This document shows positions 6,423-51,445 of a stretch of DNA of 64,000 nucleotides, piece after piece. Where the stretch lies: the NCBI GenBank assembly GCA_949288805.1, contig CASELL010000001.1:89027-153026 (forward strand). Reading direction: 5' to 3'. A program made the position numbers and the translations under genes. Source of the DNA: an uncultured Alphaproteobacteria bacterium. Lineage in GTDB: Bacteria; Pseudomonadota; Alphaproteobacteria; Rickettsiales; UBA1997. The notes beneath the pieces are model-generated. The model ran no database searches. It was given only the letters and a program-made list of their open reading frames with translations, and was not told where the DNA came from. Each line of letters begins with the position of its first letter. Positions within the stretch are counted from its first letter, which is position 1.

Positions 6423-8459
6423 TTACAATACCTTTATAGTGCAATTATTCATTTTAGATTTAATAATTTCATCGGCTGTAATTTTTTCAGCAGAATCAAC
6501 AAAACAACCATCCCTAAAAAATACTATTTCAGGCTTCAAATCTGCTATATATCTAATAACATTTTCATTTATATTTTTTTCAAAACAAGCAACCAAATTA
6601 TCAATTATATATATTTTACGATTATCAACAACTTCAATTTTATGTTCTATAGTCAATGGAAAACCATTTTCCAACAAACAAGAAAACAACAAATCTTCAT
6701 CTGTTCTATCTTGTTTAATATTAGAAACTAACCCATCTAACATTTCTTGAGTATAATTATTAGGTTCATAATAAACATCTTCCATATTGCTAGAATCAAC
6801 CCTAAATACTCTAAAACCAATATCTAGATCATTTTTACCTGTTGTTTCAACAATTTTATTGCCTGCTCTTCTAATTCTTTCTTTGCCTATTTCACAAATA
6901 TTTTTATAACCAGCTTTGAAAGCTTCACTATCTTCTTTACATTCTTCTTGTAATTGTACCATTATAAATTGTCTATTGCCACCATCTTCTGCATTTAAGT
7001 CCATCACTGCATGTGCTGTTGTGGCAGAGCCGGAGAAAAAGTCTAGGATTATGTCGTCGGGGGTGGTTGAAAGTTTGAGTAAATCATTTATTAAATAAGT
7101 AGATTTTGGATTATCAAAAACTTTTTTATTATTAAATAATAAATTTAATTCATTTGTTGCATTTGCATATTCAGTTTTATACAATATAGACTTACATGTT
7201 GTAGAAGCATATTCTAATAATAATTCATCCATTTCAGGTCTTTTTTTTTGTTTAATTCCATTATTATAAAAAATATCATTATTTTTTAATAGCTTATTAA
7301 AAGTTTCAAAACCGCTAGTCCATCTAACCTTTTCATTAAAAGAATTTATAGGTAAAATAAATTTAAATCCTTGTTTTTCATAAAAAGTTTTTAAATTTTC
7401 AATGTATGTATCATTAAATTGTTTTAAATTTTTATCATAAATTTTTTCAAATTCTTCTTTTGTTATTGAGTATAATTGATTATCTTTTAGTAAAATTGGA
7501 AAATACATATAAGGTCTTTTTTCTCTTTCTTTATCTTGTCCACTTTTTTGAAAAGTTATTTCATTGTAAAACCCAATATCATCTAAATATTTAAATTTAT
7601 TTTCAGTTTTTTTACCAAAAATATTTTCAGTTTTATTAAAACCATATTCTTTTATTTTTTCTTTATTTTTTGAATATATTAAAATTTTATGTCCGACTTC
7701 TGCTATAAAATTATCATTTTCTTTTCCTTTTAAATTATCTAAAATAAATAAAGAACTTATAAAATTTCTCTCTCCAAAAACTTCATCACATATTTTTTTT
7801 AAGTTTGCTTGTTCTCTATCGTCTATTGATATAAAAATTACACCATCATCTGTTAATAAATTTTTTGCTAATTTTAATCTAGAATATATCATTGAACACC
7901 AATCACTATGAAATCTAGGGTTAGTCTCTTTATTTTCTTTAAATTGTTTATTATCTTCTTCATCTCTATAATCAATTTCTTCTTTATATTCTTCATCATC
8001 AATAGTAAAATTATCATTATATGTAAAACTATCTTTACCGGTATTATAAGGCGGATCTATGTATATCATTTTTACTTTATTAAAATATGACTTTTGTAAT
8101 ATTTTTAACACATCGAGATTATCACCTTCAATATATAAATTTTTTGTACTATCCCAATTTTTACTTTCTTCTATACAAGGCCTTAAAGTTTTTGTAATTT
8201 TTTTATTTGCTTCTAATAAAGCCTCTTTTTTACCAACCCAAGTAAATTCATAACTTTCTACTTTATTATCTATAAGTTCATTTGATAATTCTTGTTTTAA
8301 TTTATTAAAATCAATTTTTCTAACTAGGTTGTTGTTTTCGTCAATGCTTTCTGTAAATACTTGAGGAAATAATTGTTCCATGATTTTAATATTATTATTA
8401 ACTATATCAATAGTTGTATTTTCTAATTTTTCAACTTTGAATAAATCATTTATTTTCAT
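6423..8459 (-). CDS. mod: Type III Mod-like N6-adenine (beta-class) DNA methyltransferase
   Basis: Motif IV MIYIDPPYNTG lies N-terminal to AdoMet motif I ILDFFSGSATTAHAV, which is the beta-class order typical of type III Mod. Ends 10 nt upstream of the res start. Confidence 0.9.
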   Translation of the reverse strand: MKINDLFKVEKLENTTIDIVNNNIKIMEQLFPQVFTESIDENNNLVRKIDFNKLKQELSNELIDNKVESYEFTWVGKKEALLEANKKITKTLRPCIEESKNWDSTKNLYIEGDNLDVLKILQKSYFNKVKMIYIDPPYNTGKDSFTYNDNFTIDDEEYKEEIDYRDEEDNKQFKENKETNPRFHSDWCSMIYSRLKLAKNLLTDDGVIFISIDDREQANLKKICDEVFGERNFISSLFILDNLKGKENDNFIAEVGHKILIYSKNKEKIKEYGFNKTENIFGKKTENKFKYLDDIGFYNEITFQKSGQDKEREKRPYMYFPILLKDNQLYSITKEEFEKIYDKNLKQFNDTYIENLKTFYEKQGFKFILPINSFNEKVRWTSGFETFNKLLKNNDIFYNNGIKQKKRPEMDELLLEYASTTCKSILYKTEYANATNELNLLFNNKKVFDNPKSTYLINDLLKLSTTPDDIILDFFSGSATTAHAVMDLNAEDGGNRQFIMVQLQEECKEDSEAFKAGYKNICEIGKERIRRAGNKIVETTGKNDLDIGFRVFRVDSSNMEDVYYEPNNYTQEMLDGLVSNIKQDRTDEDLLFSCLLENGFPLTIEHKIEVVDNRKIYIIDNLVACFEKNINENVIRYIADLKPEIVFFRDGCFVDSAEKITADEIIKSKMNNCTIKVL

Positions 8460-9073: not shown

Positions 9074-12000
9074 AAATCCTCCTCAATTACAAAAAAACAA
9101 ATTAATTCAAAATCATTTAAACTTTTTAATTTATTTATAGTAGTACCACCAGAAGAAAACAAACTATCAACATCTTTTTTATCTTTTATTTCTACTATTG
9201 ATTCTATTGATTTTTCAAGTAGTTTACTATAAAAATCCATTTTCTTGCCATCATTAGTTTTTTCATTAAAAACTTTACATAATTTTTTATTTACATCTTT
9301 TCCACTACAATATAATCTTAATTTATCTAATAAATCTTTTGTTTTTAGATAATCATAAAATATTTCTCCATTGTTTTTTATGTAAATTAAATAATAAGGG
9401 TCTAAAATATTTTGATTGTTGCTTTCATTTTCACTTTTTAATAAATAAATAACTCCTGCGGGCATTTCTTCGTTTGCCTCTATTACTGTATTCATTCCAT
9501 TAGGAGTTTTTTCTATACTAGGATGTTTTTTAATATAATCTATTAATTCAAGTCTAAAATCATTAAAACCAAGATCCATTATTGATATATTATTATCTAT
9601 TTCTTCTAGATCTACAACTTCGTTTTTGATTTTTTCTAATTGTTTTTTTCTATATTCTAATTCAATTTCTTCTTCGTTTATATTATCGTCATTACTAACA
9701 CTAATTACACCGGCCATTTTATTTGTTAATTTATCTTTTAATTTTATATAATCGTCCAATTCTACTGGAGGCCAGAAATTAACCATTTGTATTACTTCAT
9801 TTTTACTGCCTATTCTGTCAATTCTACCAAATCGTTGTATTAATCGAACAGGGTTCCAATGTATATCATAATTTATTAAATAATCACAATCTTGTAAGTT
9901 TTGACCTTCACTAATACAATCAGTTGCTATTAAAATATCTATGTCTTCATTATCTTGTTGTAATAAATCTCTTTCTTTTGATATAGGAGAAAATTCAGTT
10001 AAAATTGAATTGATATCGTTATTAACTTTATTAGCATTAGTTTTTATAGTATTACCAGTTATTAGGGCAGTATTTAAATTAAAATTATCTTTTATGTAAT
10101 TTACTAAATTGTCATAAAGATATATAGCAGTATCACTAAATGCAGTAAAAATTATTATCTTTTTATTGTTTTTGTTTATTGGATTGTTTATTTTATTATT
10201 TATTGTTTCTTTTAATTTATGTAATTTATAATCTTTATCTTTATTTATTAAACTTGTGCTATTATATAAACTTTCTAAGATTTGTTTATCTTTTTCAAGA
10301 TTTGCTTGCCAACTATAACAATCTATATCAGCTAAATCTATTTCCATTTTATTATTAATAATAGTCATATTGTTTGAATCTTCATAATCAAGATCATTAA
10401 AATCTTCATTATTTAAACTATAATTATTAAATTGACTACTAAAAACATCTTTTGTTATACTAAAAGCATCTAGTTCTTCTTTTTTATTTAAAAAATCGTT
10501 TATTGTTTTTAATGTATAATCAATTTTCTTTATTATTGTTTGTAAAGTTTGATTAAAAGAAAAAACAGAACTTTCCATTCTTTTTAATAGATTAATTGAC
10601 ATTAATTTTACAAGGCCTTTCTCTCTATCGCTTTGTTTAATTTTGTCGTTTTCGTTTTTGTTGTATTTTTCAACTCTACTTGGTAATAAAAAACTTGTAG
10701 GATTATAAACGCATAAAGTTAAATCCATTAAATCTTGTATTATTTCGTTATAATTAATATCGTCTTGATTTATTGTTAAAGTTGGGCTTTCATTTATTGG
10801 TTTTAGCCTTTTTGGAAATCTACCTATATCGTCAATATTATAAAACTTTTCAATATTTTTTCTTGATCTTGATATAGTTACATCATCTAATAATTTAAAA
10901 AAATCTTCATCAAGGCTATTTATTAAATCTTGAGTAGTTCCATTTTTCTTTTTACTCCATTCATTAAATCTTTGTTGCGCTTGTTTTAAAACTTTATCTA
11001 TTCTATCGTTTCCTTCTTCGTCTTCGTAAGCTAATTTTAATTGGTTCTTTAAGTCAGTAAATCTATTATTTACTGGAGTAGCAGATAACATCAAAACTTT
11101 TGTTTTTACTCCTTCTTTTATTACTTTATTTAATAATATATTATATCTATTATATTTTAATTCGTTTTCTTCAGTTAAATAAGAAGAACCACCATTTCTA
11201 AAATTATGTGATTCATCAATTACTACTAGATCAAAATTGCTCCAATTTATTCTTGATAAATCTACTCCACTTTCAGATATTCCCTTTTTTCTCGTTAAAT
11301 CACTATGAAATAATACAGTATAATTAAATCTATCTCCCAAAAGTGGGTTGTTTTTGTAATTATGTTTGTAACTGTCCCAATTGTTATATAATTTTTTAGG
11401 GCATAAAACTAAAACATCTTTATTTCTATTTTCATAATATTTTATTACAGAAAGTGCTGTAAAAGTTTTACCAAGTCCAACACTATCAGCTAGAATACAA
11501 GCATTATACTTTTCTAATTTATTAATTATCGATAAAGAAGCAGTTTTTTGAAAATCATATAATTTATTCCATATTTTACTTTTTTTAAAACCTACTGCTT
11601 CATTTGGTAAAGTATCCTCATCAAGATTTTCTATATAATCTTTAAATAAATTATACAAAGTAAAAAAATATATAAATTCAGGAGAGTTTTCATTATATAT
11701 AGTTTCTATATTGTTTATTACTTCTTCTGTTACATCTTGTAATTTATCTTTATCATTCCAATTTTCATCAAATCTTTTTAATACCCTATCATTTTCAATT
11801 TTGCTAATACAATAATCAATATTACTATTTTCAACCCCTAGGCTCGTAGTTGTAAAATCAATAATTTGATTATATAGTATAGGCATTTTATCTTGATTTT
11901 GTATTATCATATAGGTAGACATATAATCTGGGTGTTTATTTGATTTAAAACGTGCCTTTGTTCTTATCCATTCTATACATTCTTTTGCTATTGCCTTTTG

Positions 12001-34390: not shown

Positions 34391-34418
34391 TTGACTTTTA
34401 AAAAAAATTATTTATACT
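34391..34418 (+). promoter_or_regulatory. Near-consensus sigma70 promoter of the initiator tRNA
   Basis: TTGACT (34391-34396), 16-nt spacer, TATACT (34413-34418). The tRNA 5' end at 34427 is 9 nt downstream. Confidence 0.5.
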
Positions 34419-34660: not shown

Positions 34661-37600
34661 TTAACTGTTTTTTGACTCAGCACCATCAAGTTCTTCTAGT
34701 TCTTTTTCTCTTTCTTTTATTTTTCTATCAGTTTCTTCTTGTTTTTTTCTTTCTTCTGCTGCTTCTTCAATTTTTGATTTCTTCGGTGCTTTTTGAATTT
34801 CTTCATAACTTTCGTTTTGAATAATATCTTTAATAGTTTTTATCTTTTTCAAATCAGACTTTAATTCTTTCATGTCAAAATAAGCATCAACAATTTCATT
34901 TTTCTTTTTATCTATCATAGCCTCAATAGCATCTAATTTTGTTTTATTTAATAATCCATATTTACTCTCTTCTAGTGAATTTATTTCATTTTCTAATCTA
35001 GATATCTTTTTTGATAATGTTTCTATTTTTGATAACCTTTCTTTCTCAGATGGATAGTTAAAAGTAATAGAAACTCTATCAGCTACTAATTTAATTTTTG
35101 ACATTGTTCGTCCCAATAGAGAATGGTGTCCAGCAGTATATTCAGACAATGTTAAAAGTCCTTTTCTGATACCATTAGCAACATAAGAATTACTAATCTT
35201 ATCTCCCAAAATATTAAGTCCGTTTTTAATACTTATAGAATCAACCACAGATAACGCTTTAAGTCTTTCTGTATCAATCTTTGATAAATCTTTTTTATCT
35301 TTTTCTATTTTTTTAGACATTTCAGATATATTTGAGTCTAATTCCATAATAGTATTATTATTTTGCTCTTTATTTTCTTTCAAGGAATTAATTTCACTTA
35401 ATAATCTTGTTTGGTCTTCCTTAGATGCTGATAATAATTCTTTATTTTTTTGCCTAATTTTTTTGTCTATTTCTAAATTATCATTTATTAAAGATCCTTT
35501 TTTAGTTAAAAATCCAAGCTGTGCTAATTTATCATTTTCATAATCTGTTCTAGCTTTATTATATGTTCTTGACATTTTATCATAGTATGTATTAACTGCT
35601 CCCTTAGCAATATTATCTACAGTTGAACCAAGAGCATAAGCTGAACCTTGAACATATGTGCTTCTAAATTCTTCTAATTTTTTACCAGTATCCATAGCTT
35701 TATTTAAAGTACCATATGTATCTAATGCTCCGTTAGCTCCACCAATTCCAGTCATTTTGGAAGAACCGGTCATCATATCACTAAATATTTTAGAAACAAG
35801 GTTCTCTAATTCACTTAAGAATGTATCGGCTAATTTAAAGAATAAAAATGCTATAAGTACATTAAATAAAAATGTTGTTATATAACCATCAAATAATTTA
35901 AGTAAAGTTTCAAACATTTCAAAAATATTTCTATTTACCAAACAAAAGAAAGAGAATGAATTTTGATCACAAATAACATTTGGATCTCTTCCATATTCAC
36001 TATGTTTTGTAAAAGTAATTCCATCCATTAATAATATATCCATAATATTTATATATAAAGTCAAAAAGGCTATATTAAACATTGGTTTAAATATTAAACC
36101 AACAATTTCCTTAAACCATGAATCAAATATACTTTTTGTTTTGTTGAAAAACATCAATGGTAAAATTATTGGTGATATAAATATTAAAATAGATAAAATA
36201 AAAAAAGATGAAACAAAAGTATAAGCTGCTTTTATAACAAAATTAAACATTATAAATATAAAAGCTAATATTAAACCAGAAAGAACACTACCGACAGTAG
36301 ATACAACCTTATTAAATCCAGGAACATTTGGAAAGAAATATTGTGGAACTAAAAATAAAACACTATATAAAACCAAATTTGGTGCTATATTTTGGACAGA
36401 ATATCCTAAATACCTAGTTATTTTACAATCTATAGTATCAAAAAATGCTAAATATGTTTTTCCAGTTTTATATTCAGATGTATCAAAATAACAACCATCA
36501 TATTCACTATTCCAAGCGGCAGAATTAGCTAAACTATCTCCCCAAGAACTTCCTGTTTTATATTTAATTTTTATCTTTGAACCATAATTGGTATCATTAT
36601 ATTTGTCAATAACATAAAGTAATTGCTGTATCTCTTGATTTTTCGATATTATTAAATTATTTTCTAACTGTTCTGGGAAATTTTTATTTGTTTTAATATA
36701 TATCTCTGGACTATTTGTTTTAGATTTAAAACCGCCAGATCCACAGCCACCATCTTCAATGTTTCTAATTTTGTATTCTGCATTGTTATATAAATTATAC
36801 TTATAACATAAATAGACATTTTTCTCTTCTTTCGTAATATTGTCTTCTTCAACTAATTTTATAACAGCATTAGAATTAAGATTTAAAACTTGATTTTTTG
36901 GAGAATTAATAACTCCAATAAATAAAGAATTAACAAAATCATAACCGGCTGTAGCAAAATTAAGTATATAATTATAAATACCCTTCTGCCAACCGTTATT
37001 AAATATTAAGAAAGATACTATTGAAAACTTAAATATAAATAACATTAAAGCATTTCCACTTTCTCCTTTGACTATAGAGTCCATCTTACCTGAAAATAAA
37101 GCAGAATAAGCAAATAAAACTAAGAATATAGTTAAAGCTATTTTAATTATATCTTTAAAATTATTTTGTATTTTTAAGAATGGATTAAATTTTTCTGGTA
37201 ATCTTTCTCCTTTTATTATGTAAGATACAGAACCATCAGCATTTACTATAGAATTATATTTTGATTCAAAAAACGCCATATTTCCATTTTTTAAATTTTC
37301 TTTTACAATTTCTTCTGTATCTGAACCACAATATCCGTAACTGTTAAGTTCTGAATTTTTACAGGAACTCATACCAGAAATACCGTTAATTAAATTATTT
37401 AAACTTTCATATACACACTCCACAACTGGAACAGACAATTGTCTTAAAATTGTTCCATCTGAACTTCTTTGTATATTTCTAGAGTTTGTACTTGAAGAGT
37501 TACATGAAGAGTCTAAAAAGGTTGATGTAATAATGTCACTTGTATCTCTAACTTCTTCTTTTTCAACTTCAACACAATGAGCTCTATATTGACAAAAATT

Positions 37601-40288
37601 CTTTGTTTGACCATAAGCACTTGTTTTTATTTTATTAATAGTTTCATCATTCAAAACTAAAGGATAAACAAGTTCTACTCCATCATCAAAAGAAGAAATT
37701 GTATAAAAACCAGCATCTGATAAATTTGTTCTGTTATTACTTCCACCATAATATTTATCCAAATCTTCATCGGTTAATTTACTAAAATCATATATAGTTT
37801 TAAAATCGTTATCGTTAAAATTACCAATATCCTTTTTTACCATGTCAAAAATAAAAGCAGCAGTTGCTCTAAAAGAATAAAGATCCTTATATTTTTCTCT
37901 CATATTAACAGAAAATAATCCTTCTTTACAAGAAGCAGCGTTTAAGTGTGTTGATTCTCTCTTAAGATCCGCACTAGCATCAAAATCGCCACTATCTAAA
38001 AAGTTATTTGAATCACAGTAACTAGCCCTATAATTCAATCCAACATTTAATTTAAAATCATATGGGCATAAAGCATCAGAAAAAACACAAACATAATTAG
38101 TATTTGTTTTTTTTGTTCCCTCAAAATAATATGTTTCTCCAGATTCATCGTTTATAGAGCATGTTATTTTTCCCAAATCTGTATCTAATGACTTAATATA
38201 ATCTACAAGTGTAGTTTTTAATGTTTCTGAAGTTGCATAACTATTTATAACATTTGAAAAACAAAAACTATTATTTACTACACTAATATCAGTTAGTGCC
38301 TTACCCCCAGTAATATCGGTTTCTGTACCTTTTATACTCTCTAAACAAAACATATGTTGACTTCTATATTTACAACATTGTCTTGCTTCTAAAAAGGCAT
38401 TGCTACATTTTTCATTAAAAATATTAAATATAATTTCATTTTGATTTTTATCTACAATATAAAAGGTATTTTCATTATCATCCTTAATAATACCATTATA
38501 AGATATAAAAATATTTTCTATATTATTTACTACCGAAACTCTTTCATCATTATTTGGTATAATTCCATTAGCAATATCATTTTTCAAAGCAGTTATAACA
38601 CTGTCAATATCTTTTTTTGGTAAAACACAACCATTCTTACCATCATAAAAAAATCTACTACAAGCAAAATTAGCTTTATCGTTCCCTTTCATATAATATC
38701 TTTGCATTAAAGAATAATATCCTTTAACTCTTGGAAGTCTTGGATCTATACAATAATCAATATCATATGTTATAGCTCTATTTCTATTATCATTTACATC
38801 AAGACTTATATCTTTCTCTACTATTTTTGATTCGTATTCTCTTCCGGAATATAAAAATTCTCTATATATTTTATTTCTTATATCTTTTGAAGTTTTAGTT
38901 ATACCATTACAGAAAGTTTTGTCGGAATCTTCACTACAAACAACATCCGTTATCTTATCACATTCATTATTATAATTTGGATCTGTGCTTGTATTTATAC
39001 AATCATTAACAGCCTTAAACCTAGAATTTGTATAAGGTCCTTTAACATAATATTTGCCATCTCTTGTTTTTTCATAACTAAACCAATCTTGACCACAAAA
39101 TCTTATATGTTGTAAACCCTTCTTTGCTTTTTCATAATTACTCTTAATATTAACTCCACCAACTCCTAAAAGTGCAGTTTTTGTAGCAGTTAAAACAGCA
39201 TACCTAGATGAAAAACAAAGTATTGCAGCAGGCCACGGTTGAGAAAGATAATCTCTAAAACCAAAAACAAGACTAAAAGCGTATTCAAAATCCAAAACAT
39301 ATTTCAAAGATATTGGATCATAAACCATTTTTGGATCTACAAACATAGAAGCTACTTCGGTACCCAAAGAAAGAGCATCCGATCCAACTTTAGAAATAAC
39401 CTTCATAATTGCTTTAAATTTCTTTAATTTCGTTTGAGCTTGTGCTATCTTTTGTTTTGCTTTTGCAATCTTTTTTGGATTACAAACAATACAATTTGAC
39501 TCGGCTGCAATTGATGCTGAAGCATATGTAGAAAATATAGGAATATCTAAACTTAAACAATGAGCTCTTGTTGGAGAATAAGAATATGAACATTTTGTTG
39601 AATTTGTATCTGTTAAAAATGTACTTTTCCATAAACTGCTATCATGACTAGGTAGCAAAAAAGTTTTATTAATTGTATCATAATAGTTACATTGATTATT
39701 TACTACTGAAATATTTTGTGGATATATAGGATAAACAGGATAACCACCAACAGAAGAAGATTCTTGTCTTGTTATATATTTTGTTTCTTCTTTATAAAAA
39801 GCTTGTACCTGACAATACTGATTCGTATTATAAACTTGGCTAAAAGCTAAAAAACCAGCAGCATCAACATTTGTAGTTTCAAAAATACTAAGAAAATTAG
39901 TTAAAAATGTAATAGCGCCCATAAGAGCATCTAAATCTGATTTACTTACAGCATTAGCAGATAAATCTGCAACACGTCCAGCAAATACAAAAGGCATAAC
40001 CATCTCAGAAATATTTATTATCTGTCCTATAATTGGAATACTGGATATAGTATTTATAGCCTTGGTAACTTGAGAACCAAAATAAGGAAGATCCGTATCT
40101 TTACACATAATTCTAGTTCTTGAATTGGAATCATATATATATCCAACACCAGAACAACTTTTTCCATCACTACCTTTTGTACATTCAAGGCTTTCATTAC
40201 TACCACAATTCATCAAATAATTAAATCCATGGGAGCTTTTTGTTGTAAAAATAAAAAATATTAATAAAAAATAATGTATAAATTTCAT
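34661..40288 (-). CDS. Giant VirB6/TrbL-like T4SS inner-membrane protein (rvhB6-type paralog, 1875 aa)
   Basis: Follows virB3-virB4-virB6-like in one operon (AGGAG SD, 9-nt gap). Signal peptide, a Cys-rich extracytoplasmic region of about 1000 aa, and a polytopic TM block with YLAFFDTIDCKITRY and KSIFDSWFKEIVGLIFKPMF. These motifs are shared with the upstream paralog. Long charged coiled-coil tail. Confidence 0.7.
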   Translation of the reverse strand: MKFIHYFLLIFFIFTTKSSHGFNYLMNCGSNESLECTKGSDGKSCSGVGYIYDSNSRTRIMCKDTDLPYFGSQVTKAINTISSIPIIGQIINISEMVMPFVFAGRVADLSANAVSKSDLDALMGAITFLTNFLSIFETTNVDAAGFLAFSQVYNTNQYCQVQAFYKEETKYITRQESSSVGGYPVYPIYPQNISVVNNQCNYYDTINKTFLLPSHDSSLWKSTFLTDTNSTKCSYSYSPTRAHCLSLDIPIFSTYASASIAAESNCIVCNPKKIAKAKQKIAQAQTKLKKFKAIMKVISKVGSDALSLGTEVASMFVDPKMVYDPISLKYVLDFEYAFSLVFGFRDYLSQPWPAAILCFSSRYAVLTATKTALLGVGGVNIKSNYEKAKKGLQHIRFCGQDWFSYEKTRDGKYYVKGPYTNSRFKAVNDCINTSTDPNYNNECDKITDVVCSEDSDKTFCNGITKTSKDIRNKIYREFLYSGREYESKIVEKDISLDVNDNRNRAITYDIDYCIDPRLPRVKGYYSLMQRYYMKGNDKANFACSRFFYDGKNGCVLPKKDIDSVITALKNDIANGIIPNNDERVSVVNNIENIFISYNGIIKDDNENTFYIVDKNQNEIIFNIFNEKCSNAFLEARQCCKYRSQHMFCLESIKGTETDITGGKALTDISVVNNSFCFSNVINSYATSETLKTTLVDYIKSLDTDLGKITCSINDESGETYYFEGTKKTNTNYVCVFSDALCPYDFKLNVGLNYRASYCDSNNFLDSGDFDASADLKRESTHLNAASCKEGLFSVNMREKYKDLYSFRATAAFIFDMVKKDIGNFNDNDFKTIYDFSKLTDEDLDKYYGGSNNRTNLSDAGFYTISSFDDGVELVYPLVLNDETINKIKTSAYGQTKNFCQYRAHCVEVEKEEVRDTSDIITSTFLDSSCNSSSTNSRNIQRSSDGTILRQLSVPVVECVYESLNNLINGISGMSSCKNSELNSYGYCGSDTEEIVKENLKNGNMAFFESKYNSIVNADGSVSYIIKGERLPEKFNPFLKIQNNFKDIIKIALTIFLVLFAYSALFSGKMDSIVKGESGNALMLFIFKFSIVSFLIFNNGWQKGIYNYILNFATAGYDFVNSLFIGVINSPKNQVLNLNSNAVIKLVEEDNITKEEKNVYLCYKYNLYNNAEYKIRNIEDGGCGSGGFKSKTNSPEIYIKTNKNFPEQLENNLIISKNQEIQQLLYVIDKYNDTNYGSKIKIKYKTGSSWGDSLANSAAWNSEYDGCYFDTSEYKTGKTYLAFFDTIDCKITRYLGYSVQNIAPNLVLYSVLFLVPQYFFPNVPGFNKVVSTVGSVLSGLILAFIFIMFNFVIKAAYTFVSSFFILSILIFISPIILPLMFFNKTKSIFDSWFKEIVGLIFKPMFNIAFLTLYINIMDILLMDGITFTKHSEYGRDPNVICDQNSFSFFCLVNRNIFEMFETLLKLFDGYITTFLFNVLIAFLFFKLADTFLSELENLVSKIFSDMMTGSSKMTGIGGANGALDTYGTLNKAMDTGKKLEEFRSTYVQGSAYALGSTVDNIAKGAVNTYYDKMSRTYNKARTDYENDKLAQLGFLTKKGSLINDNLEIDKKIRQKNKELLSASKEDQTRLLSEINSLKENKEQNNNTIMELDSNISEMSKKIEKDKKDLSKIDTERLKALSVVDSISIKNGLNILGDKISNSYVANGIRKGLLTLSEYTAGHHSLLGRTMSKIKLVADRVSITFNYPSEKERLSKIETLSKKISRLENEINSLEESKYGLLNKTKLDAIEAMIDKKKNEIVDAYFDMKELKSDLKKIKTIKDIIQNESYEEIQKAPKKSKIEEAAEERKKQEETDRKIKEREKELEELDGAESKNS

Positions 40289-40297
40289 AACTAACTC

Positions 40298-43200
40298 CTA
40301 TTCTTCTTTTGATTTTTTTAAAGATTCATTCCTTATGGTTTCTTTGTTTTTATTGTAATAATCAGCCCCCATTCTTCTTTTAATTTTATTATCGGTACGA
40401 TTTGAATTAGATTCTATTATTTTAGACGTAAGTCCCTTAATAGCCTTTTTAGGAAGAGCGTTTGTTACATTAGCTATTTTTATCATAGCAGTAGAAGCTT
40501 TAGATAAAATACCAGAAACTGTAAAATTACTCTCTCCCAATTTACCAAATATTTCACCACCAACATCACCAATAAACTTATCAAAAATTCCAAGCAAAAG
40601 CAATAAAAATATCATATCAGAAAATATTTTAAAAAAGTCCATAGAATTTTTAATTACACTAGGAAATCCAGCAAAACCACTAATAAAAATATCAATTAAA
40701 GTAGAACCAGAATTTCCAATGACTTCTTGTGAAGAAACTATACATATAGGAGATTCATTTCCTAAATCAATAACTTTTCCTTTACTTTTTTCTTCGCATT
40801 CCTGAACCATAGAAACAAATTCATCACCAGAACTAGATGGATTATCATATATATAATAGAAATTATTGTTATCTATTTTACATATTTTACCACAATAAAT
40901 ATCCCTAACCGGTTCTCTAACTCCATAAAATTTTGCATCTCCTATATAATATTTATCAAATATTAATAAGAATAACATGGTTGATAATATTGTAAACATT
41001 GGTCTAAATATAAGTTTTAATATACTATTTATCCAAGAATCAAATATTTTTCTTGTTTTTTCTATCAAATATAGAGGTATCACCAATGGAGCCATAAATA
41101 ACAATATAGTTAATTCCAAAGAATATGTTATAAATTGAAGAGCTATTTTTATAGCTATTGCTATTATTCCTATTGTTAATAAAATAAATGGCATAATTGT
41201 CATTATAGCAAAACCAAAAGAAAAAACTCCAGCTATGAAAAAGCTAATTATTGGAATATTTGTTACATTATCTGTTGTAATACCAAAATATCTAGATATT
41301 TTACAATCCAAAGTATCAAATAAAGCTAAATACGATTTTCCAAGTCCATAATCTTCATAATTATTTGGTATTTCATCATGTTTAAAAAAGTAACATCCTT
41401 GATAGTTTGGATTCTTATATATAGAATCATACATTGTGGACGACACTCTATCAAATCTTATTATCTTAGATGATAAATTTACTATATAATTAGATGTACC
41501 ATAAACAGCATTAAATACAGGCTCTTTCCAAGATGTTGTCATAGTAAAATATATAACAAAAATAGATGTTAAAATAAAATGTGTTATATCTTCAACATTT
41601 ATACCTGAATTATTTTTTATTATAATTTTGAAACCATAGAGAACAATAGCTATTGCAAGTATAATTTTAACTATTTCCATTAAACTTTCTTGTAGTTTTT
41701 TAAATGGACCGTCAATATTATATTTTTCTAAGTTTTCTCCTTCTTTATACTCTTCACCACTTAAACAATTATTATTTAAATCAGGTTTTTCTCCAGTTAT
41801 TAAACACTTTGTATGTCCAGCTTTATTGAACAACATATTTTTGAAGGTTTCAACAAAACACTCAACAAAAGGAGCTGTAAACACCCTAGTTGTAGCACCA
41901 CCATAATTTCTGGAATAATTTGTAAAGTTATGAGATGAACCAACACCATTAATGCAGGCTGTTGAAACATAAGGAGAATTAATATTTACTTCAGATGGTT
42001 CAAATTTCTTTATATAAACACAATGTCTATCTATTTGACAAAAATTTGATGGTTTATTATAACAAGGTAATATTTTAATTTCGTATTCACCAACCCTATC
42101 GCCCTGAATCTTTTCAATACAATTACCACCACATTCTTTTATAAAACCAGAAGTTTCATCACCCCTCACTTCACAATTTAATTCATTATCCATAGTAGAT
42201 AACTTTGAAATAACATTTGTATTATTTGAACCATAATCTTCCACATAAACTCCATCCTTATAAGAAATTGGTATATCGTTTTGTGTTGTTGACATAAAAT
42301 CTTGACCAACTTCTTCTGTTCCACCTAATATTGGGAAATTATAAGGGCATAAATTATATGTTTCAACACAATATTTCTCATATTCTCCAGTTATTGATTG
42401 ATCTGATCTTTTTATTTTAAAAGAAACAGTATCTGTGTTCTTTGGTTTATAGTCACATATACTTGAATAATCGATTTTGGCAACATTTTTATCAAATTCT
42501 TCCTGATCTTCGGGTGGTATTGAAAAAGCATTTTCAGAATATTCTGATTCTGGTATACTTAAACAATTAAAAAATCCATTATCTGGACCATATCCAGATG
42601 GACATTTATAATAAAGCCCATATTCTGTTTTATAATAAGAATAAGAACCAACCTCCGAACTATTAGTTGTAACTCCATTTTTTGTATCTTCTATTACATT
42701 TTTTACCTGCTCACATGCTATATTAATGTTAGAATTTTCATTTTCGGTAAAAATACCTGTAGACAAAGAACAATCACCATCCTCATCATATATTGAACAA
42801 AAAACATATACATCTCCATCATAATTAAATTTATTACCTATATTTTCCTTTCTATTTCTAATACATATAGTTTTTTGACTTGCTTCTATACAACATTTAT
42901 AGGCATTTAAATATTCATCTGTGTTTTTTTCTAAAAATCTATCACAAGCAAAATTAGCACTTTCAGTACCTCTAAAATAATATAACTGTGATTTTGTATC
43001 TCCTTTTTTTACGCCTTCATACCTTCTTCTTTCTGGCCTTGGATCTATACAATTGGAATCAAAGTTGTTAGCGTACTCAACGCCGCCATATAAAAATTCT
43101 CTATATTGTTTATATTTTACATCAAGATAAGTATCTATATTAGCAACTGTTATATTTCCATTTTCTTTTTGAAAAATTAAATTACAAAAATCTACTGATT

Positions 43201-44122
43201 TATCCCTAAAACATTTATCTAAAGCATATTTATATGAACCAAAAAAACTCCCTTTTGTAGGAAAAGACTTATCTTGATTGGATGAATTGGTTAGAGAAGA
43301 ATTTATCATATCTAGAGTTATATCTATTGATGTATTTGTTTTAGTTCTAAGATAAGACTCTAAATCTAGTGAAGCATATGTTAACCATTCATCTCCACAC
43401 AAAGCTAAAGTATCAAAATCTTTATCTGCTTTTTTATATTGAAAATAAGAAAGAGTTTCTTTTATTACATAAAAAACAGCAGATAAACCAAGTATCATAC
43501 CTAATTTAACTACAGTTTTTACTCTTTTTGGCAATTTTAGAATAAGAAACATAGCTATACAAACAGCAAAATTTCCCCAATAAATACCTTGACATATTGG
43601 AGTTTTGTTTGTTGGGTCAAGAGAAAAATCATCTTCTCCAGCTATTATCTCTGTTAATTTATCTATACCAGAAGAAGCCAATAATATTAATAAAGGAGCC
43701 AAAAGGGAACTAAAAGCACTTTTACTATTTATAAAATTTGCAACAGTATAAAAAGTCGATATACATAAAACAGGAGCCAATAAAACATCAACTACAATAT
43801 CCCATGCCCAAGCTCCAACTTGAGGACCAATTTCATTAAGACAATTTATACCAGCCAATATTCCGCCACCTTTTGAAGATTGACATTTATTAAAGTCTCC
43901 TTTTTTACTTTCACCATAAAATAAAACACCACCTGGTTTACATGTAAAACCAGTATCAACGGAATATGTATATTTTATACCTTTTTTACCAGTATTAATT
44001 AATGATCTAAGTCTATCTTTTGCTCCAATAGAATCTTCTGCAAAAGATTCAACACTAATAGAAAAAAATAAACAATTAAAAAACAATATAAAAACTAAAA
44101 ATATTCTAAAAAACTTTTTCAT
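40298..44122 (-). CDS. Giant VirB6/TrbL-like T4SS inner-membrane protein (rvhB6-type paralog, about 1274 aa)
   Basis: The track ORF begins at 44155, inside virB4. The Met at 44122 (MKKFFRIFLVF) has an AAGGAG SD and lies 10 nt after the virB4 stop. Signal peptide, Cys-rich domain, TM block with YLALFDTLDCKISRY and RKIFDSWINSILKLIFRPMF. Confidence 0.7.
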   Translation of the reverse strand: MKKFFRIFLVFILFFNCLFFSISVESFAEDSIGAKDRLRSLINTGKKGIKYTYSVDTGFTCKPGGVLFYGESKKGDFNKCQSSKGGGILAGINCLNEIGPQVGAWAWDIVVDVLLAPVLCISTFYTVANFINSKSAFSSLLAPLLILLASSGIDKLTEIIAGEDDFSLDPTNKTPICQGIYWGNFAVCIAMFLILKLPKRVKTVVKLGMILGLSAVFYVIKETLSYFQYKKADKDFDTLALCGDEWLTYASLDLESYLRTKTNTSIDITLDMINSSLTNSSNQDKSFPTKGSFFGSYKYALDKCFRDKSVDFCNLIFQKENGNITVANIDTYLDVKYKQYREFLYGGVEYANNFDSNCIDPRPERRRYEGVKKGDTKSQLYYFRGTESANFACDRFLEKNTDEYLNAYKCCIEASQKTICIRNRKENIGNKFNYDGDVYVFCSIYDEDGDCSLSTGIFTENENSNINIACEQVKNVIEDTKNGVTTNSSEVGSYSYYKTEYGLYYKCPSGYGPDNGFFNCLSIPESEYSENAFSIPPEDQEEFDKNVAKIDYSSICDYKPKNTDTVSFKIKRSDQSITGEYEKYCVETYNLCPYNFPILGGTEEVGQDFMSTTQNDIPISYKDGVYVEDYGSNNTNVISKLSTMDNELNCEVRGDETSGFIKECGGNCIEKIQGDRVGEYEIKILPCYNKPSNFCQIDRHCVYIKKFEPSEVNINSPYVSTACINGVGSSHNFTNYSRNYGGATTRVFTAPFVECFVETFKNMLFNKAGHTKCLITGEKPDLNNNCLSGEEYKEGENLEKYNIDGPFKKLQESLMEIVKIILAIAIVLYGFKIIIKNNSGINVEDITHFILTSIFVIYFTMTTSWKEPVFNAVYGTSNYIVNLSSKIIRFDRVSSTMYDSIYKNPNYQGCYFFKHDEIPNNYEDYGLGKSYLALFDTLDCKISRYFGITTDNVTNIPIISFFIAGVFSFGFAIMTIMPFILLTIGIIAIAIKIALQFITYSLELTILLFMAPLVIPLYLIEKTRKIFDSWINSILKLIFRPMFTILSTMLFLLIFDKYYIGDAKFYGVREPVRDIYCGKICKIDNNNFYYIYDNPSSSGDEFVSMVQECEEKSKGKVIDLGNESPICIVSSQEVIGNSGSTLIDIFISGFAGFPSVIKNSMDFFKIFSDMIFLLLLLGIFDKFIGDVGGEIFGKLGESNFTVSGILSKASTAMIKIANVTNALPKKAIKGLTSKIIESNSNRTDNKIKRRMGADYYNKNKETIRNESLKKSKEE

Positions 44123-44132
44123 ATCGTCTCCT

Positions 44133-46538
44133 TTATAATTTTTTAGATCTTTCATAATATATATCTAACCAATCTTCCGGTTTATCACTCCCAATTTCTT
44201 TTATTATTTCGTTTAATAAAATAACCGTTTCAGCTCTACCAGACAAAACCCTAATTACATCACCCATACCACCTAAATCAACCCTAGCTATAACACCACC
44301 TTGATCTTGTTTGACTAAAAAATATCTTGAACCAGGATCGGTTGTTTTAATTAATTGAAATTCTCTTTCACTTAACATAAAAGCAGTTTTATAAACATCT
44401 GTTGCTTTTAAATTTGGCAAATATATTTGTGTTGCTGTTTGTTGAACAAGAGTATCTGATATACTACTTTTAGTAGCGTCTTCTACTGACTGTGTAGCAA
44501 ATACAACAAATGCATTTAATTTTCTGAATACCTTTAACCAGTCTTTAATCTTAGGAGCAAAAACTGGATTATCAATCAAGGCCCAAGCCTCATCAAGAAT
44601 AATCATAGTTGGAGTTCCATCTAATGAACTTTGTATTCTATGAAATAAATATAATAATACAGGACTAATACTCTTTTTATCCTTTAATATCTCACCCATT
44701 TCAAAACCAAAAGCATAAGCAGAGAAAAAATCAATTATATCTTCATCATTATCAAACAATTTAGCATGAGATCCATCGCTATGCCACATTTCTAATCTAC
44801 CAGCCAAAGATCCAGGACCCCCCATTCCTAAAAATGGAGCAATATTTCTCAATCTTCTTTTTTCAAATGGCAATCTATAATTACCATTTATAGCTTCGGT
44901 AATTCTAGCCATATCCTCCGCTGTTATACTTTCACCATTAACAGTCAGTAAAACTGTTAACCATTCTATTAAGAAAGCTTTATTTTCAGCAGTCTCTGGC
45001 AATCTTAATGGATTAAAACCAGAATATCTACTAGCTTCTAATACAGAATATTTTCCACCAAGCGCTCTAATAAATATTTCCGCACCTCTATCTTTATCAA
45101 AAAAGAACATTCTACAATTAAATTTTTGAGCTTGTGCACATAAGAAATTCATCATAACAGTTTTACCAGCACCAGTAGGTCCAATAATCATAGTATGTCC
45201 AACATCTCTAACATGAAAACTAAAAAAATACGGTGTTCCCGAAACAGTATTTAATACAGTACAAGCATCTCCCCAATGATTACCGGTCCTTTTACCAGAA
45301 GGATAATTATGGAAAGAAGCAAAACTAGCAAGATTTAATGTATTAATTGTAGATTTTCTAACTATATATTTAATATTTCCAGGAAGTTGCGACCAAAAAC
45401 AAGCTTCCATATTCATTCTTTCTCTAATAGCAGTAATACCAACATTTGAAAACTCAACTATAGCCATAGAAACGGCACTTTCAACAGTTTTAGGACTGTC
45501 TTCGAAACATGTAATACTCAAATGATGACTACCAAAAGCAAACTTACCACTCATAGCAGCATCAAGAGCTTGGTCAATCTCTCTAATTTGTGATACAGCC
45601 ACGTCATCTGACTGAATCATTCTTCTTTGTTGTAATTGCATACTACTAATAGCAATCATTCTATTAATATAAACATAAGATTGACATATAATAAATTCAA
45701 ATGGCATTTGTAAAAAACCATCTAAAATACCAGCATTAGTAGATGGTCTATATTCCTTAACAGAAGCTATAGCTCCATATTTTTTTATTGTAGGAGTCAT
45801 TATTTCAAATACTTTTGGTCCAAAATATAATCTATTTGTATGTATATAATGATCTAGAGGAATAGGAGATAATCTATAATTCTGTATATCTCCACAATTT
45901 ACTATAACACCTAGAAACTTTAATATTTCAGAATAAACACCATCAGGAGTTTCTCTTAACGATAATAATTCTGGTTTATAATTCATAAAACCATTTAAAA
46001 CTCTGTCTGTAATTTCGTCCAATTCAGACATGGCATCTCTCATAGCTTTTTGTTTAGCGCTTTTATCTGCTTTATTTCTCAATTTACTAATAAAATTACC
46101 AATTTTAGCTATACCAGCTGTATCATCTTTTCTAACTATGCTAATATAATGTTCGTTTACAAAACATTTATCACCTGAATGTCTATCTTTCCATTCTTTA
46201 TTTAATTTTTTAGTAAAAATATTTGTATAAGTACCACCTGGATAAGCCTCCTCTCTTCTTCTAATAGTATGAAACCATAAGGCAAAATTACCAGAAGCCA
46301 TGCCTTTTAATAAGTTATTTCTAGCATTCTTTTTAATATCTATGTCATCATCGTCTGCAGTTTCAAAAGCAAAACCAGAAATCTTGATGACTTTTAACAA
46401 ACTACCATCTTTTAATAATATTGTATCATCTTTACAATGCAAATAATATGGAATATAATCCGAAGAACTTCTTTCTTTTGATAAATATCTCTGCCTTTCC
46501 ACCAAATTATTTGCTATATCAAACATACTAAACCTCAA
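44133..46538 (-). CDS. virB4: Type IV secretion ATPase VirB4
   Basis: Walker A IIGPTGAGKTVMMNF, Walker B region TMIILDEAWALID, VFATQSVEDA. About 800 aa. The start may be the ATG at 46526 (MFDIANN) rather than the TTG at 46538. Confidence 0.95.
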   Translation of the reverse strand: MRFSMFDIANNLVERQRYLSKERSSSDYIPYYLHCKDDTILLKDGSLLKVIKISGFAFETADDDDIDIKKNARNNLLKGMASGNFALWFHTIRRREEAYPGGTYTNIFTKKLNKEWKDRHSGDKCFVNEHYISIVRKDDTAGIAKIGNFISKLRNKADKSAKQKAMRDAMSELDEITDRVLNGFMNYKPELLSLRETPDGVYSEILKFLGVIVNCGDIQNYRLSPIPLDHYIHTNRLYFGPKVFEIMTPTIKKYGAIASVKEYRPSTNAGILDGFLQMPFEFIICQSYVYINRMIAISSMQLQQRRMIQSDDVAVSQIREIDQALDAAMSGKFAFGSHHLSITCFEDSPKTVESAVSMAIVEFSNVGITAIRERMNMEACFWSQLPGNIKYIVRKSTINTLNLASFASFHNYPSGKRTGNHWGDACTVLNTVSGTPYFFSFHVRDVGHTMIIGPTGAGKTVMMNFLCAQAQKFNCRMFFFDKDRGAEIFIRALGGKYSVLEASRYSGFNPLRLPETAENKAFLIEWLTVLLTVNGESITAEDMARITEAINGNYRLPFEKRRLRNIAPFLGMGGPGSLAGRLEMWHSDGSHAKLFDNDEDIIDFFSAYAFGFEMGEILKDKKSISPVLLYLFHRIQSSLDGTPTMIILDEAWALIDNPVFAPKIKDWLKVFRKLNAFVVFATQSVEDATKSSISDTLVQQTATQIYLPNLKATDVYKTAFMLSEREFQLIKTTDPGSRYFLVKQDQGGVIARVDLGGMGDVIRVLSGRAETVILLNEIIKEIGSDKPEDWLDIYYERSKKL

Positions 46539-49900: not shown

Positions 49901-50539
49901 TTCATCAATAGTATAATCATTTTTTCTTGTTATTTCAAATAAAAAATTAGGTATTCTATTGTTAAACTCTGTTAAAGGAAAGTTTTCAAAAACAATATAA
50001 CACATATCTCTATAAGCAGGAGTTTTTCCAATTCCATTTATAGCTTCCATCAAAGAATCAGGCTCTTGATTACTTGTTCCATTATAAAATCTATATTTAT
50101 ATTTTTTTAAATCTAACAATGTAGAATCAGCCCATATATTTTTAATATCTTCAACTTCACCTTTACATATTGATATAGCAAAACTTAAATAATAAAAATA
50201 TTCTATACTTGTTTGTTTTATTTTTTGGCCCTTACCTATTTTTATAGAGGTTGTATTAGTATTATAAACTTCTTTAATATCTCCTAACCATATTATATTA
50301 CCAGCAATTCTGTTTGTTCCATATATTAAAGGTATTACTTTATTATAGCTTGAAGCCTGTATTGATATTTCAGATAATTTACCGGTTATTTTATCTTTTT
50401 TCCATGTAGTTGTTCCAAAACTATCTTTTACATCGTCAACTAAATTAATAATTTGATTTTTTTTGCTATTTATAGAACTTAAGGCTTGCGAAAAAATAAA
50501 AGTGGTCATTTGAATTATTGTTTTTTCTTTATTTTTCAA
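46901..50539 (-). CDS. Gene-transfer-agent g15-like baseplate/host-specificity protein (phage-tail N-domain plus TIM-barrel-like glycoside hydrolase-type domain)
   Basis: The N-terminal block LSEISIQASSYNKVIPLIYGTNRIAGNIIWLGDIKE...YFYYLSFAISICKGEVEDIKNIWADSTLLDL...YRFYNGTSNQEPDSLMEAINGIGKTPAYRDMCYIVFENFPLTEFNNRIPNFLFEI follows the conserved N-terminus of alphaproteobacterial GTA ORFg15 homologs as I remember it. The central IDVFLIGNELTSIT resembles the GTA TIM-barrel-like motif. Confidence 0.75.
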   Translation of the reverse strand: MKNKEKTIIQMTTFIFSQALSSINSKKNQIINLVDDVKDSFGTTTWKKDKITGKLSEISIQASSYNKVIPLIYGTNRIAGNIIWLGDIKEVYNTNTTSIKIGKGQKIKQTSIEYFYYLSFAISICKGEVEDIKNIWADSTLLDLKKYKYRFYNGTSNQEPDSLMEAINGIGKTPAYRDMCYIVFENFPLTEFNNRIPNFLFEITRKNDYTIDENSLDFCVKGINLMPCNGYSRLNTKIQYRAEDQINPDYIPSGVGSWTVLNQNNSENIADGLLSLNQLLDRFVNCEWVVPHIAMFADSLNIKDCELKPRVDFNVFTSYPNTIGYPIYTKPDSFKVGTKWNRYNTPLLGKNSDGTFRFNGASFGDNDVLSFFKELKNRNKKTVFCPEILVDIENTPSYKLLNGSIEDIDNFFKKNNGYNEFILHYANLLKDYIDVFLIGNELTSITSIHDENYNFVGVNNLIELAKQVKEIVGENVKVSYSAGFKEYHSLDGYYNLDKLWASEYIDFVGIKAFFPLTNCPQDSINKDLIKQSWFSGEGYDYIIVDDEKINIEDKDGYKNIEYWWNNKHTNKDGSFSPWSERLKKIWFTEYGFRSIDGATNEPYKVVELPVYSMGDSNFYAQRIAIEATEEVFKNVEYIENKFVYYWDIRPYPYYPNKVDIWKDGENWKYDYSLNGKVGLSNAKVSITQIFKDADIDLSLLDNINLDEFINGFVINNTMTVRDVFYILQKVYFFDCVEKNGKIAFISNKNNNNIIEISNKDLIEISNNKYINIELVSDKDLPQRVNLIFLDKNRDYDTNSVYVERTSINNNNVYVETIPIILEESRAKTIAETILYSTWLERITFDFILPLNYIYLETSDIVSLIVNDYKYILKITNISIENYTIKVQAKIFDNTIYNVKEDNEINDNIDILQGVGDSNLNIVEVPALNNDMIDKINVFFVVSGELKTWRGAYIYESKNNNSYNFLFESRVSSGIGSVLKLEQDINIRPYYFDKHTKIIVNFNHNIDDDMFKNIDTILSGENIALYGKEIIQFNKIVLNEDGTYTISELLRGLFDTEDEINNHKENEIFVLLNEYTNKQTYDYDKIDYQYYYKINSIDGDNEKSYTYYIKGINLKPMKVCFLKYKKYDNYLHVEWKEKSRGYVNWLNNRDHISVEKTEKYYLEFLKNEEIIDSIYIENKREYDYYFDKYPDKLKICQVNDLYGFGLENIIYIN

Positions 50540-50657: not shown

Positions 50658-50686
50658 TTGACATTTAAAAAATTATGTTTTACAAT
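50658..50686 (+). promoter_or_regulatory. Near-consensus sigma70 promoter with no downstream CDS
   Basis: TTGACA (50658-50663), 17-nt spacer, TACAAT (50681-50686). Confidence 0.5.
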
Positions 50687-50692
50687 GTATTC

Positions 50693-50781
50693 GAAACAGA
50701 GTTTTGTTTTTTATTTTTTTCCTTTATTTTTTAATCAGGGTTGGTATTTAGAATACCAACCTTGCTTTTTAGTACAAACAA
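50693..50781 (+). ncRNA. Candidate small U-rich RNA of about 90 nt, defined by promoter plus intrinsic terminator
   Basis: Predicted TSS is about 7 nt after the -10 box. The transcript would end at the 50746-50780 terminator. No ORF. The identity is unknown, and the ends are inferred, not measured. Confidence 0.35.
50746..50780 (+). terminator. Intrinsic terminator
   Basis: 12-bp stem cagggttggtat/ataccaaccttg (one G-U pair), 5-nt loop ttaga, followed by cTTTTT. Confidence 0.6.
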
Positions 50782-50823
50782 TAAAAAAGTAATATAGTCT
50801 AAATGCTATAAAAACATAAAATT

Positions 50824-50995
50824 AAAAAAACATTATTATGGTAATAGTACCACTAAAAGGGATGAATAGTTGTCACTAAGACCTTGTATGTAAAGTGGGT
50901 ATCACATACCGCAACCACGATTGCGACAGAGGCGACTCCCGAAAGTATTAAAAGAGTCTCTGGGATTCATACAAATTCTGTCCCTTAAAGTAGTA
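50824..50995 (-). ncRNA. Candidate structured RNA of about 170 nt, family unknown, with its own near-consensus promoter
   Basis: The 140-nt core 50852-50991 has 58 G+C by hand count, against extremely AT-rich flanks. Its 5' and 3' ends pair (ACUUUAAGGGA with UCCCUUUUAGU). Internal helices: CAGAG-ACUC/GAGU-CUCUG, CGCAA/UUGCG, UAUGUGA/UUACAUA. A weak hairpin plus U7 at 50824-50853 is a possible 3' end. Confidence 0.5.
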
Positions 50996-51000
50996 ATAAT

Positions 51001-51029
51001 ATTGTATAAATTAATTATTAAATAGTCAA
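51001..51029 (-). promoter_or_regulatory. Near-consensus sigma70 promoter driving the structured RNA candidate
   Basis: Minus strand: TTGACT (51024-51029), 17-nt spacer, TACAAT (51001-51006). The predicted TSS near 50994 is immediately 5' of the closing stem. Confidence 0.55.
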
Positions 51030-51115
51030 GTACTATTTATATTTATTTTTTTTAATATTGATTTATTATTATTAAATACTATTATCTATATTGTATAAAA
51101 ATAATTTTATAGTAT

Positions 51116-51445
51116 ATGTTTTACGTAAGAAAAACCATGGAAATATCCGCTTCACACCAAGTAGAATTTCCTACAGAACATAAATGTGAAAAATTACATG
51201 GTCATAACTGGACTATTGATGTTTTTTGTAAAAATGAAACTTTAAATGAAAATGGTGTAGTTGTTGATTTTACAGAAATTAAGAAAATAGTTCATGGAAA
51301 ATTAGATCATCAAAACTTAAATGAAGTTTTAGATTTTAATCCTACTTCTGAAAATATTGCTAAATGGATAGTTGATAACGTCCCTTTTTGTTATAAGGCT
51401 ATCGTTAGAGAAAGTCAAAACAATGAGGCTACTTATGAGCTTTAA
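51116..51445 (+). CDS. 6-carboxytetrahydropterin synthase QueD / 6-pyruvoyl-tetrahydropterin synthase (PTPS) family
   Basis: ISASHQ at the N-terminus and the CEKLHGHNW zinc/catalytic motif. 109 aa. Confidence 0.8.
   Translation: MFYVRKTMEISASHQVEFPTEHKCEKLHGHNWTIDVFCKNETLNENGVVVDFTEIKKIVHGKLDHQNLNEVLDFNPTSENIAKWIVDNVPFCYKAIVRESQNNEATYEL

Follow-up and report, generated by a model that had tools for sequence, protein, structure and literature searches.

The gap between a GTA-like tail protein gene and the queD-folE genes in the window (by which we mean the whole 64-kb stretch of DNA that was analysed) raises the question of what is encoded by the G+C-rich island within it. The window overall contains 23.6% G+C, while the core of the island (50852-50991) has 41.4%, and our recount of this 140-nt segment gave exactly the 58 G+C of the preliminary description. 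Its AT-rich flanks were also as described there, with 21% G+C on one side (50700-50851) and 9% on the other (50992-51115). The G+C level of the island is reached by 0.06% of the 140-nt windows in the 64 kb, the remaining equally G+C-rich ones being two tRNAs and coding sequence, and the island is single-copy and the sole non-tRNA intergenic G+C island in the window. Upstream of the tail protein gene are VirB4 and giant VirB6-like genes, whereas on the other side, beyond queD-folE, the minus strand encodes czcD and csoR. The VirB4 (801 aa) and VirB6/TrbL-like (1285 aa) genes are part of an rvh-type type IV secretion block with an additional 1875-aa ORF (34661-46538, minus strand), which directly adjoins the orphan GTA-like tail gene; in relatives, this tail gene is found in quite different neighbourhoods. 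The closest protein matches of the locus are from metagenome-assembled genomes (MAGs) labelled Rickettsiales, and contigs near-identical to it were found in several ENA and Logan metagenome assemblies.

Only one other lineage was found to contain the RNA (locus L070), and its QueD is 95% identical to that of the window. Between the two, the RNA (50843-50994) is 97.4% identical, versus 62% for its 3' flank, 76% for the promoter stretch, 78% for the spacer between RNA and queD and 79% for the third codon positions of queD, which indicates strong selection on the RNA. Four changes were observed where approximately 30 were expected neutrally, and all four either affect unpaired positions or preserve a wobble pair (Table 1). 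The edges of conservation are sharp, at 50848 and 50997, and judged by this comparison the conserved core (50848-50997) is a real and strongly conserved gene under purifying selection.

The preliminary description had proposed an RNA gene on the minus strand with its own TTGACT-17-TACAAT promoter, and both proposals were confirmed: the promoter is located on the minus strand (51029..51001), matches the consensus at 10/12 positions and is maintained in L070, as is the RNA of approximately 150 nt downstream of it. The −35 hexamer is unchanged in L070, as opposed to the 76% identity of the sequence around it, and the −10 hexamer there reads TAAAAT with a 16-nt spacer, which again puts the predicted +1 on the A of ACUACUUUAAGGG. 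Across the 128 kb of both strands, 54 promoter matches reach 10/12 or better, so that a start within a few bases of the RNA 5' end would be expected by chance in about 0.4% of cases. A second promoter of the TTGACT type (TTGACT-16-TATACT, 34391-34418, plus strand) ends 9 nt before a tRNA-Met gene (34427), and its position before a stable-RNA gene supports such motifs as being functional in this genome. Transcription is thus predicted to start at 50994. With regard to the 3' end, the scan reported no canonical terminator on the minus strand at the locus, while in L070 the 3' strand of the closing stem is directly followed by UUUUUU. We infer a length of 147–152 nt, and the original estimate of about 170 nt would apply only if transcription ran on to the U7 tract (50830-50824).

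Table 1. Features of the RNA gene and its neighbours (positions in the window), and differences between the RNA sequences
Feature	Position	Strand	Basis and remarks
−35 hexamer TTGACT	51024..51029	minus	consensus scan
−10 hexamer TACAAT, 17-nt spacer	51001..51006	minus	consensus scan; predicted start is A 50994
6S/SsrS (RF00013) match	50999..50843	minus	model positions 1-187; 32.4 bits, E=2.3e-5 (181-nt island search)
Closing stem, 5' strand UACUACU..AAGGGA	50981..50995	minus	pairs with 50848-50862; pairing probability >0.99; in both folds
Closing stem, 3' strand UCCCUU..AGUGGUA	50848..50862	minus	folding and model threading
Hinge	50980-50966 and 50872-50863	minus	6S-model threading
Rod helix, 5' strand UCCC-A-GAGACU	50955..50965	minus	pairs with 50873-50883; 9/10 pairs standard
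Rod helix, 3' strand GGUCUU-A-GUGA	50873..50883	minus	between bubble and closing stem
Central bubble, 5' strand CUUUUAAUACUUUC, 14 nt	50941..50954	minus	aligned to unpaired 5' bubble of RF00013
Central bubble, 3' strand ACUUUACAUACAA, 13 nt	50884..50896	minus	with preceding CCC reads CCCACUU (consensus CCCACCU)
Terminal arm GGG-A-GUCGC...GUCGCAA[UCGUGG]UUGCGGU...GUGAU-A-CCC	50897..50940	minus	15 standard pairs in model alignment
U7 tract after weak hairpin GGUAcuauUACC	50824..50830	minus	read from sequence; possible termination or processing site
GTA-like tail protein gene, 1212 aa	46901-50539	minus	Pfam GTA_TIM, Phage-tail_3, Rcc01698_C
queD	51116-51445	plus	followed by folE
RNA difference 1: C to U			5' bubble (loop of hairpin 1); in L070
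RNA difference 2: A to G			at A-A mismatch (loop of hairpin 3)
RNA difference 3: one C inserted			3' bubble (loop of hairpin 3); in L070
RNA difference 4: C to U	50934		G-U wobble kept in either fold

In one relative (L012), an alphaproteobacterial two-piece tmRNA (RF01849, 210 bits; 5559-5908, minus strand) is located directly upstream of queD on the opposite strand, which is exactly the place and orientation of the RNA in the window, while other related lineages carry intergenic G+C-rich palindromic repeats. Both observations would fit with the island being the relic of some other stable RNA gene, such as tmRNA, or of a mobile palindromic repeat, but this is hardly credible, as there is no T-arm, CCACCA end, tag reading frame or tmRNA model match at E<=10, and the RNA is single-copy and has no similarity to the repeats. 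Purifying selection, the sharp boundaries and the maintained promoter also argue for a working gene. The silence of ARAGORN on a permuted tmRNA is uninformative, since the tmRNA of L012 was likewise unreported by this program.

Several specific candidates were rejected. A tmRNA (RF01849) was discarded since the RNA lacks the motifs of the L012 tmRNA and gave no match to the model at E<=10, and a dispersed repeat of the Rickettsia palindromic element kind since the RNA is single-copy in the 64 kb and unrelated to the repeats of L068 and L074. The narrow search of the island gave no match at E<=10 to SRP RNA or RNase P RNA either, in agreement with the preliminary description, which had set aside these two RNAs and tmRNA. 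A small protein encoded by the 22-codon frame starting at AUG 50970 was also rejected, as this frame is without a ribosome-binding site, both substitutions within it change the amino acid, and the three codon positions are conserved to the same degree.

We then turned to all 4227 Rfam families for an assignment. At gathering thresholds, the search of the whole window returned two tRNAs only, and a permissive search of 801 nt gave nothing relevant at the island. With the search confined to the 181 nt of the island, 6S/SsrS (RF00013) was the only one of the 4227 families with E<1, and aligned over its full length on the minus strand (Table 1), while the plus strand gave nothing with E<6. The match was missed in the two wider searches because of the speed filters, which are laxer at 181 nt. 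The L070 orthologue also aligned with RF00013 over its full length in the same narrow search (35.3 bits, E=4.6e-6). Both scores are under the curated cut-off of 46.4 bits for this family, and rescaled to the 64-kb window, the E-value of the match becomes approximately 0.008. The signatures flanking the bubble are present as GGGAG...ACCCACUU...AAGGUCUUAG (GGG...CCCACCU in the family, and GG.UC.AG on the 3' side), thus comprising GGG...CCCAC(C)U, CAG and AAGGUCUUAG, and the C inserted in L070 converts CCCACUU to the exact family consensus CCCACCU. By manual count, about 22 of the 40 highly conserved RF00013 consensus positions are matched. Both the predicted start at 50994 and the conservation limits at 50848-50997 agree with the ends of the match, and these are independent marks, since neither is used by the RF00013 model; the match is on the right strand and has the right ends.

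The control for this narrow Rfam search was a long palindromic hairpin of a relative (L074, 4110-4290), which gave 72 sub-threshold matches on both strands. Most of them were to microRNA hairpin models, E-values were as low as 2e-9, and 6S RNA was not among the families matched. This shows that sub-threshold E-values need caution on non-random sequence, and also that a rod as such does not suffice to produce the 6S match. With a full-length, one-strand match in two lineages, we consider it probable, judging from 64 kb of the genome, that the RNA is the divergent 6S RNA (ssrS) of this organism, missed by standard annotation, although a better 6S candidate may exist outside these 64 kb. The RNA had been described as unassigned, which it probably is not; most likely it is a divergent member of an already known family and of low novelty.

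The structure of RF00013 can be threaded on the RNA with 37 of 44 pairs standard and seven non-standard, giving a rod with the elements listed in Table 1, in which the terminal arm is capped by the hexaloop UCGUGG and a GGG/CCC helix lies on the terminal-arm side of the 14/13-nt bubble. The helices specific to the rod are 50955-50965/50873-50883 and 50932-50940/50897-50905, those specific to the alternative three-hairpin fold 50951-50961/50926-50939 and 50901-50908/50885-50892, and 17 out of the 20 rod-specific pairs are standard. Two alternative folds, one of them a rod reminiscent of 6S RNA, had been put forward in the preliminary description; both can be drawn, with all named helix strands at the places given, and the rod is the one supported by the RF00013 model. 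The minimum-energy fold of the minus strand (−45.2 kcal/mol, z = −3.45 versus dinucleotide shuffles) is the other one, consisting of the closing stem and three hairpins. The best structure constrained to the rod has −30.8 kcal/mol and is thus about 14 kcal/mol less stable, and the rod-specific pairs have an ensemble probability of <1%, compared with 0.96 for hairpin 3, 0.96 for hairpin 2 and 0.57 for hairpin 1. The two folds have the closing stem and the central hairpin (CGCAA/UUGCG, probability 0.96) in common, but UCCC-A-GAGACU (50955-50965) pairs with GGGAGUC in the minimum-energy fold. The bubble strands are open in the rod, whereas in the other fold each is locked into a hairpin formed with one strand of a neighbouring rod helix. 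Hairpin 1 would be the first to form during transcription. Three distinct RNA sequences were available, the only double change among them is outside the likely transcript, and the four differences fit the rod and the three-hairpin fold alike; with two lineages containing the RNA, covariation cannot choose between the folds.

Of the refuting conditions named in the preliminary description, a clear Rfam hit to an ordinary known RNA thus applies in part: Infernal against Rfam, including 6S, gave an RF00013 match at E of about 1e-5 to 1e-6 that is below the curated cut-off. The comparison with relatives revealed 97.4% identity in L070, with three distinct sequences leaving covariation uninformative. 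It is at this point that a lineage-specific small RNA other than 6S, with a four-way-junction fold and a protein or mRNA partner, has to be weighed, for which the 6S match would be accidental, favoured by the closing stem and central hairpin that the two folds share. The three-hairpin fold does dominate the ensemble and would form co-transcriptionally, the observed substitutions are all in its hairpin loops or keep a G-U pair, homologues were found in just two closely related lineages, and both the score under the cut-off and the spurious matches of the structured control hairpin are compatible with such a coincidence. We nevertheless regard it as unlikely, since 6S alone of 4227 families was matched, and this over the entire model, with its signatures and on a single strand in each of the two lineages, since 17 standard pairs out of the 20 rod-specific ones would be unlikely with selection only for the other fold, and since one ssrS gene with a strong promoter is to be anticipated in a Rickettsiales genome. 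It is doubtful, though slightly less so, that the ground state is a stable four-way junction, either of a self-inhibited 6S RNA that needs remodelling, by polymerase or in the course of transcription, to become a promoter mimic, or of a new class of small RNA in a narrow clade of host-associated Rickettsiales with a superficial likeness to 6S. If the three-hairpin fold is real, this would imply that 6S RNA can be kept inactive through its conformation.

Turning to known 6S RNAs, those of Bacillus subtilis (6S-1) and E. coli switch into alternative hairpins which collapse the bubble, induced by the product RNA, and the RNA described here resembles these in having two well-paired folds which exclude each other and in which the bubble strands take part. 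The known rearrangements take place after product-RNA synthesis, via a strand freed from the closing-stem side. In the present case, by contrast, the free RNA is predicted to have the alternative fold as its ground state, and the two strands of the terminal arm are both involved in it; the parallel may serve as a lead. With E. coli ssrS the RNA shares the full-length RF00013 alignment, the size class, its own promoter of the σ70 type and a closing stem, bubble and terminal arm which can be threaded, but it is shorter (about 150 nt versus 183 nt) and, unlike E. coli 6S RNA when folded for comparison, does not have the rod as minimum-energy fold. The E. coli gene order is zapA-ssrS-fau, while here there is neither zapA nor a 5-formyltetrahydrofolate cyclo-ligase gene as neighbour; linkage of 6S RNA to the latter is common in the Proteobacteria, but is not universal and does not define the family.

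The more relevant comparison may be with the Rickettsiales, which retain a very highly expressed 6S RNA (PMC4896933, PMC4683814, PMC12558409). In Rickettsia prowazekii and Wolbachia it counts among four or five housekeeping small RNAs, has its own transcription and is very abundant (PMC4896933, PMC12558409). It was shown by Northern blot and 5' RACE in R. prowazekii (PMC4896933, PMC4683814), while in Wolbachia no start site is more highly expressed than that of 6S RNA (PMC12558409). Judged by the rvh-type VirB4/VirB6 genes and the best protein matches, our organism belongs to the same order-level group as these two. Compared by description rather than by sequence, RNAfold is reported to give a rod for the R. 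prowazekii 6S RNA, and, likewise by description, the 6S RNAs of both bacteria are recognised by standard annotation, whereas the RNA described here was missed.

Searches for further orthologues covered several sets of sequences. No diverged orthologue was detected with nhmmer and our own covariance model (R1) around queD in six Rickettsiales MAG loci, and in relatives with a QueD of 61–79% identity the RNA is not beside queD; in the closest of these (L068/L069, 79% identity) exoD is directly upstream and there is no RNA. R1 did not find the RNA around the tail-like gene in L074-L077 (60–71% identity) either, and pattern scans found nothing related in viral contigs or in JGI metagenome contigs, the latter giving one unrelated G+C-rich chance match. 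The G+C islands in the related loci are tRNAs, coding sequence or palindromic repeats, and synteny is heavily rearranged within this clade.

The same searches bear on whether the island is a cis-acting leader, i.e. the 5' untranslated region of the GTA-like tail gene (start near 50509-50539), which is on the same strand with the RNA about 310 nt upstream, or a plus-strand riboswitch for queD/folE. The latter are queuosine-precursor genes adjoining the island, and such genes are often controlled by preQ1 riboswitches. We consider a leader very improbable, since the element is absent upstream in relatives which keep the tail-like gene (L067, L074, L075, L077) as well as in those which keep queD (L011-L015, L022, L067, L068), queD is transcribed away from it, and a predicted separate convergent transcription unit with its own terminator is situated between the RNA and the tail-like gene. 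A riboswitch for queD/folE on the plus strand was rejected, as there was no match to any riboswitch family, preQ1 included, on either strand even in the narrow search, and the fold of the plus strand has no exceptional stability (z = −1.3).

If the RNA is indeed 6S RNA, the strong σ70-type ssrS promoter would drive a transcript of about 150 nt on the minus strand, running from about 50994 to about 50848. The working form would presumably be the rod, with closing stem, hinge, 10-bp helix, 14/13-nt open bubble and 15-bp arm with hexaloop. By analogy with known 6S RNAs, this rod may mimic an open promoter and fill the active site of the σ70 RNA polymerase holoenzyme, and polymerase occupancy would damp housekeeping transcription when growth slows. 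The 5' bubble strand (50941-50954) is the putative template, which the polymerase would copy into a short product RNA, predicted as approximately 5'-(G)AAAGUAUUAAAAGAGUCUC, with release of the RNA. As it is, the Rfam gathering score together with the default filters would miss ssrS in a very AT-rich lineage of the Rickettsiales, and such genomes would wrongly appear to be without 6S RNA under standard Rfam annotation; the locus could be used as seed for finding ssrS in related MAGs.

A number of minor observations were made in the window and in related loci. At the start of the L005 contig (1-180), the 3' half of the RNA is inverted and is connected with the region upstream of queD by way of a shared TTTTTTTAAT, while the 5' half and the promoter are absent. 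This is probably an assembly artefact at the contig end, but could be a real inversion which disrupts the gene in one strain. QueD homologues of about 69% identity were found in phage-like contigs (L071-L073) together with queC, queE, folE, a ParB-like gene and a peptidase M15 gene, and many other homologues are in Bacteroidales genomes, which suggests that the queD/folE pair has moved horizontally. In the lineage with the 79%-identical QueD, stretches devoid of genes (L074 3660-4520 and 9000-9125, L068 5950-6400) contain numerous G+C-rich palindromic repeats (TGTCATTCCCGCGGAAGCGGGAATC and relatives), which are reminiscent of Rickettsia palindromic elements, and one repeat from this L068/L074 lineage was the source of the spurious microRNA matches (down to E=2e-9) in the narrow search.

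Finally, the spacer between the 6S-like gene and the tail-like gene contains what appears to be a second, separate small transcription unit (50658-50773, plus strand), with a TTGACA-17-TACAAT promoter (11/12) and a predicted transcript of about 80 nt, the corresponding stretches being L075 ~9700-9870 (minus strand) and L076 ~7900-8080 (minus strand). Its U/C-rich block TTTGTTTTTTATTTTTTTCCTTTATTTTTT is identical in a relative with a 60%-identical tail-like protein, while the stem of its terminator hairpin (50736-50764) is wholly different there (GGGTCCAC/GTGGGCCC) with pairing kept, and on these grounds the unit is a candidate for a conserved small RNA without an Rfam match.
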